Assembly (NCBI GenBank): GCA_963825865.1
Contig: CAWGVG010000015.1
Coordinates: 64,001-128,000 of the forward strand
DNA length: 64,000 nt
Source: an uncultured Nitrososphaeraceae archaeon
GTDB lineage: Archaea > Thermoproteota > Nitrososphaeria > Nitrososphaerales > Nitrososphaeraceae
Direction of reading: 5' to 3'
A program made the position numbers and the translations under genes. Positions 4,078 through 64,000 of the stretch are shown one piece after another (the first letter of the stretch is position 1; each line of letters starts with the position of its first letter). The notes below the pieces were generated by a model. It made no database searches. It saw only the letters and a program-made list of their open reading frames with translations, and was not told the DNA's origin.

Positions 4078-5421
4078 TTGAGCGATATACTACAAGAGGA
4101 AGAGATGGGACAATGGAGAAGGACACATTATTCCTATGAAGTTAACTCAAAACTTAATGATAGGGAAGTAGTAATTATGGGATGGGTTTCAGCTATCCGT
4201 GACCATGGTAATATGCAATTTATCACCATAAGAGACAGATATGGAGATATACAAGTTATTGCAAAGAAAAGTGAATGTTCAGAGCGATTATTTGACCAAA
4301 TACAACAGATAAAAGAACACGCCTCAGTCGCGATTCGGGGAAAGGTTAGATCACAAGAAAAAGCACCTAGCGGTGCAGAGGTCATCCCATTAGAATTGAA
4401 GAGTATTTTCTATAGCCAAAAAAGCAGCTCCATTTATGATTCAAAGTAAAAATCATCTGTTGGTATTGATACGAGATTGGATTTGAGGGCGATAGACCTC
4501 CGCAGAAATTTTCTTAAGAAGTATTTTCCATATTCGTCACACTGCTTTAAATGCAATCAGGGAATTTTTGTACAGAACAAGGATTTATCGAAGTAAATAC
4601 CCCAAAAATGATTGCTACTGCTACAGAAGGAGGTGCCGCATTATTTCCAATATTTTACTACGACAGAGAAGCATTTTTGGCGCAAAGTCCTCAGTTGTAT
4701 AAAGAACAATTGACTATGGCTTTTGAAATGTGTTTGAAATAGGACCAATATTTAGAGCGGAGCCATCACGCACTAATAGACATCTTTCAGAAGCAATATC
4801 TATTGACGTTGAGAAGGCATTTGTAGACTACAACGATATAATGCAACTACTTGAAAAGATGATCGCATATATTATTGATTCGATTAAAGAAAAGAACAAA
4901 AATGAGTTGATTATCTTAATCTTGCAATTCCCAAATATCGAATTGCCGTTCCCAAAATATTCCTATTCTGACTAATAATTAGCAAGTTACAGGAGTACAG
5001 GAGAACGTATTAGATGGGGAGATGATCTTCCACCACAAACAATGAAAAACTTGCAAGACGATAGAACTAATGGATTTTATTTTATTACTGATTGGCCTAC
5101 TTCTATAAAACCCTTTTATGTTAAGACCAAAGTTGAGGGTCGATGAGAGATGTGTGAGTCGTTTGATCTCATGTACGGATCTCTTGAGATATCATCAGGC
5201 AGTACAAGAATAAACAGGAAGGACGAGTTATTGGAAAGAATGAAAAAACAGGGATTAAATACACAGCATTTGACTATCATCTTCGAGTATTTGATTATGG
5301 GGTTCCACCTCATGCTGGATTTGGATTGGGTCTAGAGCGTTTACTTATGGCTATTACACAATGCGACAACATACGTGATGTAACACTATATCCAAGAGAC
5401 ATAGATAGGCTGACACCGTAA
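4078..5421 (+). CDS. aspS: Aspartyl-tRNA synthetase, archaeal, probably non-discriminating (split by indels)
   Basis: RRTHY OB-fold start, [46 protein letters not shown], and C-terminal [10 protein letters not shown]; lies directly upstream of gatCAB. Confidence 0.93.
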
Positions 5422-38058: not shown

Positions 38059-39488
38059 ATATTATCTTATTACTGTCATGAATTTTACTTCGTTTAGCAT
38101 GAATTGCCTTTATTGCGTCTCCTACATTGGTGCCCTTATCTTCCACGACTATCAAAATTCGTGACGTCTCTTCTTGGGCATCTAGGTTCAAGATGTTAAT
38201 ATCATGTTCCCCAACCGTACTACTAGCGGTGGATGCGATTTTTGGCATGCGCCACATCTGGTCACCAATTAAAGTAACAACCCCTCTTCCATATACAATT
38301 TCTGCCTTTGGATAATATGCTTTAAAATGACGTTCATGCCTTCTAACGTAATCTGCATCAAGGAAAAGTAATCTTGTTATTTCGATATCATCCTTCCTGA
38401 AAGGAGATAATTTTACAAAATCGTAATACTGTTTATCTTTTTCAATTGATGCTATTAGATATGATGCTGCAATGCTTTCCATTCTTACAATTGCACAATT
38501 CTTCTTTCCAGTAACAATCTTTATCAATTTGTTATCTTCTATAGGAGGGTTTTTCTGAATTATTGTAATATTGGCCGGATTTTTAATGTTAGTAATAATC
38601 ATTGGAATGTCCAGATTGTTATCATCGATCTCCTTTATAGCTATAGGATCAAGAATCTTCATCCCGAACATACCCGCTAGCTTTGCTTCGTTGTAGGATA
38701 GATATTTTATATATTCGAGGTCATCATTTACAATCTTGGGGTCAGCGCTTAATACACCGCTATCTTTTTCAAAATCCACTTTTGCATCAAAATGACTTTG
38801 TAACAGTATTGCGATGTCCGTTGCTGTCCTATCTGACCCTCCACGTTCATATGTTGTTTCAAGTCCATCAATACTTTTACCGATAAAACCTCCTATTGAT
38901 ACAACTTCATTGTGGTTTACTAGATCAATTAGGTAGCTGTTGTTTTGTTTTGATTCTTCGACCATAAAGGTGGCAGCCTCAAAATTATCGTCGGTAATTA
39001 TTGGCCATTTTTCGATATCAACGTGATCGGATTTAATACCATAGCTGCGCATTACGTAGTCCATCAGATAAGACATTGTAACTTCTCCACTGTATGCGAG
39101 CGTTCTAGACCTTATTACATCTACAAAACGCTTGTTCTCTGCGGCCTGTTTTAATGATATTATTACCTGACGATAGAACTTATCAAGATTTTCCAAAAAA
39201 TTGTCACGGAATTTTTCAGAAACGTGATCAGGCAGCAATTCTTTCATAAACTTCGCGTAAAACCTCAATCTCGATGGGATTAGAAGAGGCATAACTTCTT
39301 CCAACTTTCATGGCAACATCAGTCATAGATTTTGCCTTTTCTTCATAAATAATAAGCGGAGCAGAGAAAACTGAAATAACCTTGGTCTTCTTACTTATTT
39401 GCTTTATCCTATCAATAATTTTTGGAATGAAAACACCATCTACTCCGATGGTACTGCCGCCAAATTTAGCCACTGTAACAGGAATCAA
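38051..39488 (-). CDS. Aspartate kinase (indel near 39240)
   Basis: VAKFGGS, ERGGSDRTA, VLSADPK, LSYNEA, ACT-like C-terminus. Confidence 0.88.
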
Positions 39489-56048: not shown

Positions 56049-56120
56049 ACGCTATGATCTCACTTTTTCTATGGCAATCACTGTACATTTAAAAGAGGTT
56101 ATTCCAATTTCACTTTAATT

Positions 56121-56214
56121 GGGGCTATCGTCTAGCTTGGTCTAGGATACCATCTCTTATAGAGGTACAGGCCTGGGGCGCTGGCGGTCGTGGGTTCAAA
56201 TCCCACTGGCCCCA
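56121..56214 (+). tRNA. tRNA-Pro(GGG) with 18-nt intron (56153..56170) at position 29/30
   Basis: Acceptor stem GGGGCTA/TGGCCCC, T-arm GTGGG-TTCAAAT-CCCAC; intron removal gives CCAGC-CTGGGGC-GCTGG. Confidence 0.93.
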
Positions 56215-56273
56215 ATGTGATATTAGTTCTCTAATTGGATTCACTCGAACAGAAAAAAAGTGAAATTAAATAG

Positions 56274-57543
56274 ATGCAAATTGAACAAGGAGAAGGAGAA
56301 CAACAAGAACCAATTGAGGAGGAATCCAATGCATATTCGCTATTTGTATATGCCGTGAGATCACAAATTACAAGGGATTATTATCTGAGACGGTTACGAA
56401 TTTTCTTTAATGATATTAATTTACTTCCTGATGGAGCAATGGAAGAAAGGTGTAATCTGTTTGCTGCAAAGGGATAAAAGATCCAAATTGGGCTTTTCAT
56501 TGCATTGTAAAATTCTTGCAGTTTCAAAGGGAAAGAGTTGAAAAAGAAGAGATTACAGGAGCAACTCTCCGTAACTTTGTAAAAGCTATAAAATTATTCT
56601 GTGAAATGTCTGATATTCCAGTTACATGGAAAAAGATCAGTCGTGGATTACCTAAAATTAGAAGATATGCTGATGATCGCTCACCAACCATACAAGAAAT
56701 TCAGAAAATTTGTGAATATCCTGATAGGAGAATAAAAGGAATAGTGTACACTATGTCATCTACTGGAATCAGGCTTGGCGCATGGGATTACTTACGCTGG
56801 AGACATATAGTGCCAATCAAAAGAGAAGGAAAAATTGTAGCCGCAAAGGTAGTTGTTTATGCTGGAGATGATGAAGAGTATTTTTCATTCATAACTCCTG
56901 AAGCATATTGTGAATTGGAAAAATGGATAGAATATCGTCAGGAATCCGGGGAAAAGGTAGATGTCAATAGCTGGGTAATGAGGCAATTATGGAATACTAA
57001 ACAAGGCCACTACCATCATGGAACAATAAAGGATGCTACTAAACTCAAATCTTCGGGGGTCAAAAGATTAATCGAAGATGCATTATGGACACAAGGAATT
57101 AGAAAGAAATCAAATCTAAAAAGAAACAGATATGAGTTTCAAACAGATCATGGGTTAAGAAAATGGTTTAAAACTCGTTGCGAAATAGCTGGAATGAAAA
57201 GCATAAATATAGAAAAATTGATGGGTCATTCAGTAGGTATATCCGATTCTTACTATAGAGCTACAGAGAATGAACTTTTAGATGATTATTTGAAAGCAGT
57301 TCCTCTACTTACAATAAGCAGCGAGAACAGGCTTCATATACAGATGAAAGAAGTGGTCGAACAATCAAGAAATAACGATGCCAGCATCAAATCTGAATTA
57401 TACGAAAAAGGACAAGCGATTGCTAATTTGACAGAAAGAGACTCATTAACACTGACGCAATAGCTTCTCTATCAGATCAGGTAATGAAACTTATCAAGGA
57501 GATCGAGGTCTTAAAGAGGAACAGAACTAGTGATACAACTTAA
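56274..57543 (+). CDS. Tyrosine recombinase/integrase (indels near 56470 and 57445)
   Basis: STGIRLG (R), HGLRKWF (HxxR), LMGHS (H), DSYY (Y); coiled-coil tail. Confidence 0.9.
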
Positions 57544-59782: not shown

Positions 59783-62700
59783 ATGATATCTGATAATTTA
59801 CTATCCCACGATGATAATAAAGTTATCCCACATCTAATATTGACCGAGTATCACAGAATGGGTTTTAAGCTAGTACCTCTCGGAGAGGACTCTAAAACCC
59901 CGACCATCAGCTCTACTAATGACATTTACAACGATCCTAATTATTGGACAGAAGAAAAGCTGATCAAAGAGTATTCTAGATTTTCAAATATTGCTACTAC
60001 ATTTGGCATAACTTACACTTCAGAAGGCGAAGCAAACGAGAATAAAAAAGTGTACCTCCACTGCCTGGATATTGATAGTGATAATGTTCTAGCTATTTTA
60101 TTTGACTTCTTAGAGGAGCTGAAATCCAAAACATTTGTAACTAAAACTAAGAAGGATTGCGGTTACCATATTTACTGGTTAAGTCACTCGCAACATACAT
60201 CAATTGGAGCTCGCAGATGCAAACTTGGTTATGAGTTTGAAATCAAGAGTGATAATTCGCTTGGACTTTGTACATTGCCACCCAGCATACACAGGGACGA
60301 TCCTACATTTAGGTATAGAAGTATAGGACTGGATTGTAAAATAACTATTGATGATGGGTTATACCACAAACTGGTAGGTATGCTTTATGATAGGTGTCTC
60401 AAGTCCCAGAACGCCAATGTGATAAAAGATAATCAAAAAGGATTCTAATTTAGCAGGTGTAGATAAAATAACAAAAAGTGAGACTCTTTCTACCGCTACT
60501 TTTAGATCCCTAGATGAACATGCTATAGAACAAGCGGCAGATGCACTTAGGATCAGTTATCAAAGAGGTCATAGAAATTCTATAATTTTTGGTCTTGGTG
60601 GATTATTATTCAAGTCCAGTGTTTCTCTACAAAGTGCACATGATCTGGTTGCCAGGCTATGTGATCATACTAAAGATGAAGAAAAGAGTAGCAGACTGGA
60701 AGTTTTAAACAGCACATACATGAAGGGTTTAAACGGCGATGACGTTAAAGGCACTGCTCAGCTTCTCGATATATTTACTACATTAAATGGAGGAGATAAA
60801 AATTCTGCAAGACAGTTTTTGAAAGATATCTGTCAGGTTCTAGGTGTGAACGGAAGCATTAGCAATAATGATGAATCTAGTGCACCAACGCCTACTACAA
60901 CTCAAACTCTGATACAACTAGCCAAAGAAAACACCTTATTATTTTTCAAAGATCAATTTGATATCACCTATGCCAAAGTTAAGGTACATCAACATTCTGA
61001 GGTAATAGCACTTGCCAGTTCCAAATTCGAATATCTACTAAGTAAACTCTATTTTGAACATACAAGAGGTGAGGTGGCAGGTCAAGAATCATTAAACAAT
61101 GCTATACGTGTGCTAATTTCACAGACTTTGTTTGACAGTCCAACAGTAACCTTAAACCTAAGGGTTGCATGGGGATGTGAACTGCAAAGTAAAGATTGGG
61201 AAATTTATTACGATCTAGCAGACCCTCTGTGGAGTTGTATTAAGATAACTCAGCAAGATTGGGAAATCATACAAGACCCTCCAGTATTATTTATCCGGTT
61301 TAATCAAAAAGCGCAGATTGAACCTGAGAGAAACTATCCTATTGACATATTTGATAAGTATCTTGATTTAATGCACATAAACAACCCAGACCACAGACTG
61401 TTAATCAAAGTCTGGACTATTGCAGCATTTATTCCAGATATCCCACATCCAATAAGTATTCCATACGGTGAAAAGGGAAGTGTAAAGACCACATACTGCA
61501 AATTCCAAAAAAGGTTAATCGATCCTGACAAAATAGAGCTTCTTACTGTTCCTCAAGAGAAAAGCGAATTTGTGCAACAGCAATATCACAACTACCTTAC
61601 TGTCTACGATAATATCAAAACCGTTCCATATTGGTTTTCTGACGAAGTTTGCAAAGCAATAACGGGAATTGGAAGTAGCAAGAGAAGACTTTACACTGAT
61701 GACGATGATGTGATCTACAGTTACAAACGCCTTCTCATAATAAATGGCATCAATAATAGTCTAACTGAGCCTGATGCCTTAGATCGCAGTATCCTCAAAG
61801 AGTTCGAACGAATAACTGACGATCAGAGAAAGGAAGAGTCCAAGGTAGAGGCTGAATTTGAAGAAATGAAGCCAAAACTTTTAGGATATATATTTGACGT
61901 TTTAGTAAAATCCCTACGAATCAAGCCTAGATAGAATTACGTAACTTGCCCAGGATGGCCGATTTTGCAGTTTGGGGAGAAGCCATTGCAAGGGCCATAG
62001 GCTATAAGCCAATGGAGTTTATTGAGGCATACTATCGAAATATAGGTAGGCAAAATGTAGAAGCAATAGAATCAAATCCGTTAGCTCAGACATTAGATAA
62101 GTTTGTAGATAGCTGGTACAAAGAAGGACAGGAAGCTTGCTGGCAAAGTCCTACTTCTAAGGTTTTAGAAAAGCTAAACAAGACAGCCCAGGCGTATGGT
62201 ATAGACACAAGCAGTAAATTATGGCCTAAAGCCGCCAATTCCTTAACAAAGAGGCTAAGGCCTATACTATCAAACCTAAGGGAGGGTCTAGGAATCCATG
62301 TTGTCATCAGCAGAAACTCTACTGGCAAAAACAAAAACACTTCAACCATAAGAATACTGAAAAAACCTCCACTACCTCCACCATCTCCACCAGACCAAAA
62401 CAAGCACAAAATTATAATGAAAATGGTGGAGGTATATTGAGTAGTGGACATACATACCTCCACTCAACAGCATATATCTCCACTAGAAGATATCCAAAAT
62501 CGTGCTCAAAACACAGAAAGTGGAGATAGTGGACATAGTGGAGGTATTATTCCTACCTTAGAGGAGCAGAACCATCTAGACATCGCTGTCAACGATATTC
62601 TGAAAAAGTATGTTGCATTTGACCTCGAATGGACAACATCTTCAGAAGAATCTGCTTCCACAGGATTTGCAACCACATACTCAATAGGAACAAAGATCAC

Positions 62701-64000
62701 AGCAGCTGCTTTTGTAGACAATGAAGGGAAAAGCAAAGTCCTACACGTATCAGACTATTCTAATTCCGACAATCCTGAACATGAACTCTTAGTAGATGTT
62801 AATAAAGAGCTGTTAAAGTATGACTATTCACTTGGATGGTATTCTACTGGTGTTGCTATTTATCATGAAGACACTCAAGAGTACCTTGATGGTGTTGACT
62901 CGGATCTTGCTTATTGCATAACAGGTGTTTAGCAAATGGTGTTGATTCTGTAATTGATTTTAATAGCGCAGGTATTCCATACATAAGGGGTCAAAAACAC
63001 ATTGACCTGCATTCTGTATTTGGCAAACCAATGGTACAGACTACAATCTTTAAGAATGCTTACAGAACCCTCAAACTTGAGGAAGTATCCAAAGCTGTAT
63101 TAGGAGACGGTAGTGTTGAAACAGGTGAAGGAAAATACAAAGGGCTAACAGGTAAAGACATTCATACTCTTTCAGTTGAAGAACAAAGGAAGTATGTTCT
63201 AAGAGATGCAGAGCTAGTAATACAACTTTCAAAGCATAACAATGGTGAAGTCCTTGATGCTATGAAATCTATCTCGGAAATAACTGGACTGGATTTTGAA
63301 AGAGTCTGTGGAACTGGCATATCTACATGGTGGGGAGCTATTTTTGATAATATGATGTCTAATGGAGAACACGAATCACCAGCCTTATCATTAACAAAAA
63401 GAAACAAGAACTAACAGATCTAGAGTATAGAGGTGGAATAGTCCTTCAACCAAAGAGGGGACTTTACCATAATCTCATTGTTGTTGATGTTGCGAGTTTG
63501 TACCCTTCAATGGCAATACTTCACAATATATCATTTGACACAATTAACTGTGAATGTTGTAAAGATAGTAATCTTGACTTGAAGACAAACAAAGACATTA
63601 CAAAAGATTGTAGAATAGAAAAAGAATAGAATGGATATGTAAATTAAAAGAAGGTGCGTTTCCAAAGAAATTAAAAGTATTCAAAGAAGAGAGACTACAA
63701 CAAAAGAGACTAGGAAATCAAGTAAAGCAACTAGCTTTAAAAATTCTAATTAATGGCGGGTATGGAGTCTTTGGAAGTCAATATTTCAAGTATTATGATC
63801 CAAGAGTAGCAGAACTAATCACAGCTTATGGTAGACATACACTTTCAAAAATGCAATCAATTGCCAAAGACATAGGCTTTGAAATAGTATATGGAGATAC
63901 TGATTCCCTTATTCCTTCGCTATAACAATAATAATGCAGTATTTATCTCTGAAGGCATGAAAAAATCGTTTCAAGAGTTCAAGAAGAATGTAGCAAACAA
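59783..64000 (+). CDS. Putative single fusion replicase: Prim-Pol AEP + PriCT + SF3-like helicase + proofreading exonuclease + family B DNA polymerase (split by indels; runs off window end)
   Basis: AEP LDIDS, GYHIY, LPPSIH; PriCT GHRNSIIFGL; Walker A GEKGSVKT, YDN, INGIN, DALDR; exonuclease FDLEW and YVLRDA; PolB YRGG, DVASLYPS, KILINGGYG, YGDTDS. Confidence 0.75.
62365..62545. repeat. Mirror-symmetric array of ten 9-bp repeats (iteron-like; candidate origin)
   Basis: A(C/T)(C/G)TCCAC(T/C) forward at 62365, 62374, 62383, 62456, 62476; reverse at 62425, 62443, 62519, 62528, 62537. Confidence 0.85.

Follow-up and report, generated by a model that had tools for sequence, protein, structure and literature searches.

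Why would ten copies of one short DNA word be set out in mirror order inside the coding sequence of a replicase? This question is raised by a 64,000-nucleotide stretch of an uncultured Nitrososphaeraceae archaeon (the window; positions 64001-128000 of the contig labelled C15 in the genome labelled G000). Judging from its sequence, the window carries what is likely a plasmid-like element integrated beside a tRNA-Ile gene, and the replicase gene of this element encodes a primase-polymerase (PrimPol), a helicase and a family B DNA polymerase (PolB). From the comparison with relatives and from the modelled fold, we consider it probable that the array is the iteron origin of the element, which would be bound by the winged helix (wH) of the replicase itself and translated as a disordered linker.

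The 9-mer AYSTCCACY matches 17 times in the window, a number reached in 0 of 100 shuffles; 2.35 matches are expected (sd 1.41, largest 7). Ten of these matches are concentrated in the 181 nt from 62365 to 62545. A whole-genome scan with the 9-mer pattern returned the order >>><<>><<< with spacers of 0, 0, 33, 9, 4, 11, 34, 0 and 0 nt; together with the pattern count, this confirms exactly the places and strands given for the ten copies in a first-pass annotation of the window. Tandem Repeats Finder reports two period-9 tandem arrays (62365-62392 and 62515-62543), and the outer arms of the array, 29 nt each, are 86% complementary. On the plus strand, the outer-left triplet ACCTCCACT ACCTCCACC ATCTCCACC (62365..62391, period 9) is followed by a first long spacer of 33 nt (62392..62424, 61% A) containing a degraded box, AAAA-CAAGCACAAAA, at 62397-62411. 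The inner-left pair on the minus strand (62425..62451; GGTGGAGGT and AGTGGACAT in plus-strand letters) encloses a 9-nt spacer with an in-frame TGA at 62438-62440, and the inner-right pair on the plus strand (ACCTCCACT and ATCTCCACT, 62456..62484), set off by the 4-nt array centre (62452-62455), encloses a spacer of 11 nt. A second long spacer of 34 nt (62485..62518, plus strand) carries the conserved box AAAATCGTGCTCAAAA at 62496-62511, read as QNRAQN, and the outer-right triplet on the minus strand (AGTGGAGAT AGTGGACAT AGTGGAGGT in plus-strand letters, 62519..62545) completes the array. The reported likeness of the two A-rich long spacers is borne out, both carrying one box. As the boxes have the same, direct orientation in both spacers, the proposed mirror symmetry holds for the 9-mers but does not extend to them. 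Translation in the frame of the gene gives PPLPPPSPP for the left and SGDSGHSGG for the right outer triplet, as had been noted, and the coordinates place iteron positions 1, 4 and 7 on the third base of a codon, whichever way the repeat is oriented.

The array begins with the codon that follows the helicase wH domain. Upstream of it, all on the plus strand, lie an ORF with a PrimPol domain (59783..60448; Pfam Prim-Pol, E 1.7e-6), which shares 22 nt with the helicase frame but is read in a different frame, the N-terminal part and P-loop core of the helicase (60426..61934, core 61176-61931), and the C-terminal wH region (PRMADF ... WPKAANSLTKRLRPILSNLREG ... TSTIRILKK, 61946..62364), which extends to the first iteron and is the candidate for binding the iterons. 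Downstream, the PolB part begins with the exonuclease motif VAFDLEW (62580..64000, plus strand) and continues in several frames beyond the end of the window, as far as about 64582. The 404-aa and 164-aa ORFs after the Prim-Pol ORF, and with them the helicase N-terminal part and core, gave no Pfam, NCBIfam or PHROG family at the thresholds used. In the nearest intact relative (L043), a single ORF of 1719 aa contains Prim-Pol (89-278), the helicase and DNA_pol_B (1295-1614), and the helicase-PolB fusion suggested earlier is real in intact relatives. Folded as a single strand, the window array forms a nested hairpin of -31.5 kcal/mol (z -5.65), and the array of a second relative (L049) one of -36.9 kcal/mol (z -7.43), with none of 200 shuffles as stable in either case. 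A large stable stem-loop is thus present directly 3' of the wH-coding end of the PrimPol-helicase gene in both the window and L049.

A first scan of genome contigs with a single protein found no relative. In genomes of the same family, the helicase matches intact ORFs of 870-1401 aa, and nine of the eleven loci fetched showed one 7-mer clustered on both strands, inside or just after this ORF, with a word that differs per locus. A first alignment (A1) was too divergent for pattern building, and a core alignment (A2) was used for the wider scan. This yielded 197 relatives in a collection of species genomes, the best 80 of which belong to Nitrososphaerales, DPANN archaea, bacteria of the candidate phyla radiation (CPR), Acidobacteriota, Chloroflexota, Aquificota, Bacillota and others. 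At least 371 relatives are found on metagenome contigs, while viral contigs contained only one and phage records likewise only one, from a Microbacterium phage (25% identity). To be counted strictly as an array, an exact 7-mer had to occur at least five times, with at least two copies per strand, in a 250-nt segment that began +330 to +520 after the match to the core; the survey took in loci where at least 750 nt followed this match. Arrays were found in 26 of 73 species-genome loci, where they were the top segment of the locus in 25 of 26 cases against a background of 17 in 22,680 segments, and in 28 of 67 metagenome loci, where all 28 were the top segment and the background was 2 in 11,175.

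The repeated words differ widely between members and include TCTCCAC, TCTCCAG, TCGCCTG, ATCGTTC, GACGATA, GACGGTA, AGCGTTA and GCGTCAC. The arrangement of three iterons, 34-37 nt, inner inverted pairs, 34-37 nt and three iterons recurs in L049, L018, L090 (a DPANN archaeon), L094 and L118. Comparable symmetric repeats in homologous genes, the absence of which had been set beforehand as the refuting test, were thus found at the same offset and with conserved geometry but different words. Within the genome of the window itself, three further decayed replicase paralogs (C7:25500-26200, C6:57900-58700 and C5:72300-73100) carry arrays at the same place with the words TATCGACT, TATCGTCCG and ATCGTTCGA, as well as a CGTGCTCAAA-type box, so that four paralogous elements of one genome have four different words. 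The free 12-kb plasmid pH6Ac of Methanothrix harundinacea (L123) has as its top repeat cluster eight copies of CGCCTCC on both strands with a purine-rich centre. Its in-ORF inverted array lies at 4331-4595, inside the homologous PrimPol-helicase ORF and just after the matched domain.

An AlphaFold2 model was produced for L049 from the helicase to the end of the protein, using 69 sequences. The model (mean predicted local distance difference test, pLDDT, 82.6; predicted template modelling score 0.77) has a folded part, residues 81 to 570, that closes with a confidently predicted winged helix comprising helices at 498-511 and 525-543, the latter being the putative recognition helix (WPK..N.L.RRLN), and a wing at 545-570. 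In L049 the iterons begin near codon 571, and the array-encoded residues 583-658 have pLDDT values below 50, as predicted for a disordered linker. At the thresholds used, searches of Pfam, NCBIfam, PHROG and the PDB assigned the helicase part to no family by sequence. Foldseek placed SCCmec Cch (5dgk; SCCmec, staphylococcal cassette chromosome mec), the primase-helicase of the Staphylococcus aureus pathogenicity island SaPI5 (7ola) and the primase-helicases of African swine fever virus and poxviruses (8iqi among the matches) at the top, with E values of about 1e-8. With VIA-align, the best match was the SaPI5 primase-helicase (7ola_C; Z 19.9, root mean square deviation 5.2, 377 residues aligned, model residues 82-563), followed by D5/E5 (Z about 17), PriRep1 with double-stranded DNA (7pds, 14.0), NrS-1 (13.6) and SCCmec Cch (5dgk, 13.4). 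The canonical P-loop is GxxxxGK[ST]; the form found here, GEKGSxK[ST]T, departs from it, although its G and K are invariant in alignments A2 and A3. According to the model, the relation to D5-, SaPI PriRep- and Cch-like superfamily 3 (SF3) helicases is visible in the fold only.

The closest fold to the helicase and C-terminal domain described here is thus that of Rep (PriRep) of SaPIs and other phage-inducible chromosomal islands and of Cch/Cch2 of SCCmec. Excerpts of PMC7581432 describe that the C-terminal domains of SaPI Rep and Cch2 bind iterons directly downstream of the helicase gene, in the case of Cch2 direct repeats downstream of its operon. According to these excerpts and part of bioRxiv 10.64898/2026.10.17.759575, systems of this type employ a self-loading initiator helicase with short repeats after its gene, apparently as two hexamers. 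In contrast to SaPI and Cch proteins, with which sequence identity is only about 11-12%, the array of the present family is in most cases part of the ORF and translated with it (18 of 24 arrays), followed by a zinc-finger tail or a whole PolB; its hosts are archaea and many bacterial phyla, and it is known here from sequence and model. By analogy with SaPI Rep and SCCmec Cch2, the wH domains of the replicase subunits would bind the 9-mers, and the two mirror-image halves of the array would place two helicase rings on the DNA in head-to-head orientation. The A-rich spacers of 33-34 nt and/or the cruciform-prone centre may then open, whereupon the PrimPol would prime and the fused PolB would extend.

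An iteron origin located within the coding sequence of its own initiator and bound by that initiator is also found in phage lambda, whose O protein, itself no helicase, recruits DnaB from the host. In passages of PMC3349717, ori-lambda spans bases 39034-39160, inside gene O, and comprises four 18-bp iterons and a 38-bp AT-rich stretch. Unlike the array described here, the lambda iterons lie on one side of the AT-rich region and form no mirror array, and the proteins are unrelated. SV40 large T and papillomavirus E1 are SF3 helicases that act as two hexamers on inverted short sites flanked by meltable DNA. Recognition of cognate origins by helicases of this type is mentioned in the excerpts of PMC7581432. 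Their origin-binding domain, in contrast, is N-terminal to the helicase and their origin does not lie in the helicase gene. A further likeness is seen to ORF904 of pRN1, which has the same domain order and a cis element consisting of an inverted-repeat structure of about 100 nt immediately 3' of the wH-coding end; the window array folds likewise. Part of PMC4234260 states that this PrimPol/SF3-helicase/wH protein needs a stem-loop of about 100 nt, 54 bp downstream of the gene, whose sequence is not conserved. The pRN1 element differs in being intergenic and in being described as a structure without iterons. The HelPrimPolB group has PolB joined with PrimPol and an SF3 helicase in a single fused protein, as covered in passages of Kazlauskas et al. 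2020 (PMC7544198) that mention no origin or repeats; L043, with Prim-Pol and DNA_pol_B in one ORF, resembles this group by domain content. Among the genes of thaumarchaeal integrated elements, portions of Krupovic et al. 2019 (PMC6563490) name primpol-S3H and PolB, the word iteron occurring there in the reference list only, and a passage of Kazlauskas et al. 2018 (PMC5862659) predicts that C-terminal WH domains recognise origins, naming no sites. Our literature search, of partial coverage and without supplements, returned no description of in-frame iteron arrays in such replicase genes.

Compared with L043, the window gene changes frame near 61930, 62911, 63400, 63625, 64200-64250 and 64440, which makes at least six breaks besides the TGA at 62438-62440. 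Because the frame is broken this many times, the window copy is either a decayed relic or mis-assembled with indel errors. A paralog on contig C21 of the same genome is 74-76% identical and also broken but has an open frame across its array, which has spacers of 34/9/3/11/34 and reads ISPLPPPSPPDQNHAQNQGKSGGDILDSGDNISTQQQIPPPENGQNHAQKTESGGSGHSGG. Aligned to it, the window is one base short in the box of the first long spacer and has one base extra in the central spacer, and the TGA sits in the shifted stretch between these two indels. The first-pass annotation had suggested that adding 1 nt to the 33-nt spacer and 2 nt to the 9-nt spacer would restore a symmetric spacing of 34/11/4/11/34 and remove the stop. 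The arithmetic is right in that the TGA would go, and the single added base fits the C21 paralog; the two further bases do not, and the spacing of this paralog, with its open frame, speaks against the corrected one. A perfectly symmetric array does exist in L049 (34/6/-1/6/34, counted with a 12-mer). An alternative genetic code for the TGA was considered and rejected because the stop falls within the segment that is out of register with the paralog and because further frame changes occur elsewhere in the gene. Public sequencing runs hold at most 0.14 of the words of the stretch, none of these runs being RNA, and contigs built from them leave 62401-62519 uncovered. In one such contig of 151 nt (soil run, depth 2), position 62909 is followed by an additional T that would bring the PolB ORFs at 62444-62932 and 62914-63414 into one frame. 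ORFs of at least 200 aa cover 34-42% of four large contigs (C3, C15, C21 and C26), 51% of the window and, in a set of 15 loci from relatives, 65%. Broken frames are widespread in the assembly and are also seen, for instance, in PKD/NHL-repeat genes at L001 11632-14192.

In addition to the iterons, the box found in the long spacers is shared between elements. Allowing up to three mismatches, AATCGTGCTCAAA occurs in the target zone of 19 of the 73 loci with 26 matches, 22 of them on the strand of the gene, where about 7 are expected (background 0.30 per kb). It is found mostly in Nitrososphaerales members, which have many different iteron words, and also in free-standing arrays; outside Nitrososphaerales, the few matches of TCGTGCTCA are possibly due to chance. 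Elements with differing iterons retain the box, as AAAATCGTGCTCAAA (read QNRAQN), in each of the two long spacers and in direct orientation. This second element common to thaumarchaeal members (CGTGCTCAAA) may be a site for an auxiliary factor or a priming site.

The genome of the window contains seven arrays of the >>>...<<< type, two in the C15 and C21 replicase genes and five elsewhere, at C15:134093-134365 (L001 16093-16365), C15:144675-144930 (L019 6675-6930), C21:44289-44563 (L018 14289-14563), C53:27421-27669 and C55:29186-29387. Partial copies are present at C52:29035-29155, C59:1825-1891 and C27:91237-91315. The free-standing arrays are discrete units of about 260-300 bp that are 72-83% alike. 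Their homology to the in-gene arrays takes in about 17 nt of the left and about 19 nt of the right flank, and they possess an extra centre of about 65 nt with two more iterons. No replicase remnant was found beside any of the five. On both C15 and C21, the in-gene array is followed downstream, at a distance of about 7.7 kb, by one of the free-standing arrays. A cluster on contig C14 with six widely spaced matches on one strand looks like a different thing. A search of four related genomes with a two-iteron pattern returned tandem matches at replicase arrays and scattered single matches with one mismatch, and no orphan-type array.

The position of the array within a coding sequence might suggest that the repeats are a by-product, either of a Pro/Ser- and Gly/Asp-rich low-complexity linker selected as protein or of the insertion of a repeat resembling a miniature inverted-repeat transposable element (MITE). 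The array does encode a disordered linker, in which S-P and G-D dipeptides recur across elements. Of 24 arrays, 20 are free of stops in the helicase frame, compared with 5 and 2 in the other two frames, and the ORF runs through the array in the 18 cases given above, so that translation through the array is the rule. Downstream, either a conserved C2H2-like tail (the form of about 960 aa) or PolB (the form of 1382-1719 aa) follows. Selection on the linker as protein would, however, leave unexplained why, in any one element, the copies in the two orientations have one and the same word although their peptides differ (ISP/GD, ESF/ND), and why both sets change together between elements. These joint changes can be synonymous, with TCT CCA and TCG CCT both encoding S-P and GGA GAT and GGC GAT both encoding G-D, or non-synonymous as in the ATCGTTC type, where S-P becomes S-F and G-D becomes N-D. 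It would equally fail to account for arrays outside the ORF, as in L033, L034 and L113; in a few relatives the array lies just after the stop codon. Because of these shared words, joint changes and out-of-ORF arrays, the repeats are selected as DNA and not only as peptide, in agreement with what had been suggested from the window alone. With regard to insertion, the free-standing copies, being discrete units with inverted ends, do look like MITEs. The in-gene array does not behave like one, since homologs of different phyla down to about 40% identity carry it at the same offset, each with its own word. A by-eye comparison of the array flanks, which was not a systematic search, showed no target-site duplication. 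Taken together, we regard a mere by-product as extremely improbable.

A role of the repeats in control is less easily set aside, although we still think it unlikely. The repeats would then be bound by the replicase or another protein of the element as a roadblock for autoregulation, for titration or handcuffing in copy-number control, or as a centromere-like partition site. The same-word arrays away from any replicase gene (C15:134093, C15:144675, C21:44289, C53:27421 and C55:29186) resemble control iterons of plasmids such as P1 incA and F incC, and both the lack of a clear AT-rich unwinding element and a second, intergenic repeat cluster on pH6Ac, which could be its true origin, would fit such a role. 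On the other hand, the four other genomes searched for two-iteron patterns are without an orphan-type array, and no partition genes were seen beside the array in the window and flanking ORFs. Further, the in-gene array is the top repeat cluster within about +/-5 kb at the 25 of 26 and 28 of 28 positive loci mentioned above and hence leaves no better origin candidate nearby, and its fixed place right after the DNA-binding domain is where the SaPI and SCCmec origins lie according to the excerpts of PMC7581432. It might also be the hairpin or cruciform in single-stranded DNA or mRNA that matters and not the iterons, either as a structural origin like that of pRN1, where the stem-loop in question is not conserved in sequence (PMC4234260, in part), or as an RNA structure modulating translation between the helicase and PolB parts. 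The stability of the folded window and L049 arrays agrees with this idea. A stem, however, requires complementarity of the arms and neither three tandem copies of a word per arm nor reuse of this word in the inner pairs, and an Rfam search of the array matched no family. As structure and iteron recognition are compatible, this explanation is partly a sub-case of the origin reading, and on its own we judge it very unlikely.

An iteron origin bound by the replicase has to be weighed against several observations that do not favour it. By the strict criterion, 47 of 73 genome loci and 39 of 67 metagenome loci have no array, many CPR-bacterial members have only 3-4 copies or none, and two Methylobacterium plasmids have no array at the expected place. 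In pH6Ac, a separate intergenic cluster of direct repeats (812-1007) lies upstream of the gene and could be the origin instead. No clearly AT-rich unwinding element is present: the long spacers have AT contents of 76% and 65% compared with 64% for the window, and at least 19% of 33-nt windows are equally AT-rich, so that the spacers are A-rich on one strand and otherwise ordinary. The window copy cannot fire unless its breaks are assembly errors or a replicase acts in trans, and the five orphan copies show that the array unit can exist without an adjacent replicase. Co-variation of the word with the C-terminal domain of the helicase, as predicted by the first-pass annotation, is seen insofar as the words follow the helicase/wH tree. 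At the sequence level, this cannot be separated from shared descent, which alone could produce it, and no clear rule for specificity residues in the wH recognition helix could be read from the alignment. In sum, the earlier proposal of an origin bound by the replicase, akin to iteron origins in or beside rep genes, agrees with the position of the array, its conserved geometry and the adjoining wH fold. The array is not restricted to the gene, as the free-standing copies show. The array and its position are observed, as are its conservation under a change of words, translation through it and the modelled fold; binding, loading and firing of the origin would follow by analogy.

If the array is indeed the iteron origin, its embedding in the replicase frame might itself be an adaptation for co-translational loading in cis of nascent replicase onto its own encoding DNA, an idea that we put forward tentatively and consider rather unlikely. 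Of the folded parts, the wH would be completed last, before the ribosome moves across the iteron linker, and coupled transcription and translation would deliver the replicase to the site. Recombination could then never separate replicase and origin, and the five orphan arrays of about 280 bp may be origin-only hitch-hikers or decoys which exploit or titrate the same replicase.

For archaeal plasmids and integrated elements, hardly any origins are known to us, and we know of no replicating vectors for ammonia-oxidising archaea. The positional rule emerging from our survey, about 400-500 nt after the helicase core and directly after the winged helix, would yield a predicted origin together with its specificity word for a helicase family without a Pfam, NCBIfam or PHROG entry. 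The natural pairs of replicase and word could be used to study how winged helices read iterons and how SF3 helicases load themselves. A complete candidate origin translated as a disordered linker would also be a clean case of two overlapping codes in one stretch of DNA.

The left end of the integrated element is likely marked by an intron-sized tRNA-Ile(TAT) gene of 96 nt (56120-56215, plus strand) together with a tyrosine-recombinase-like integrase ORF (56516-57463, plus strand). After the integrase-like ORF, small ORFs, one of them weakly MazE/AbrB-like, and a weakly Toprim-like ORF precede the Prim-Pol ORF. A search for attR with the end of the tRNA-Ile gene gave only matches of 12-15 nt, which is at chance level, and no convincing downstream repeat, which leaves the right end of the element undefined. 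Among the relatives, PrimPol-helicase forms of about 960 aa (L032, L040, L041 and L042) end in a conserved CxxC...H...H tail with a GLKPQGKSWEI-like end (A1 columns 1150-1216), and PolB forms have the polymerase in its place. A segment of about 190 nt just after the end of PolB is repeated with 77-80% identity at C15:128798-128982, C15:134471-134655, C21:38917-39063, C62:34036-34207, C53:35084-35276 and C3:200650-200766, once right beside a free-standing array. Finally, a MITE-looking repeat family of about 165 nt (74-84% identity), unrelated to the array, is present at C55:29833-29984 and in more than 60 other places on most contigs.

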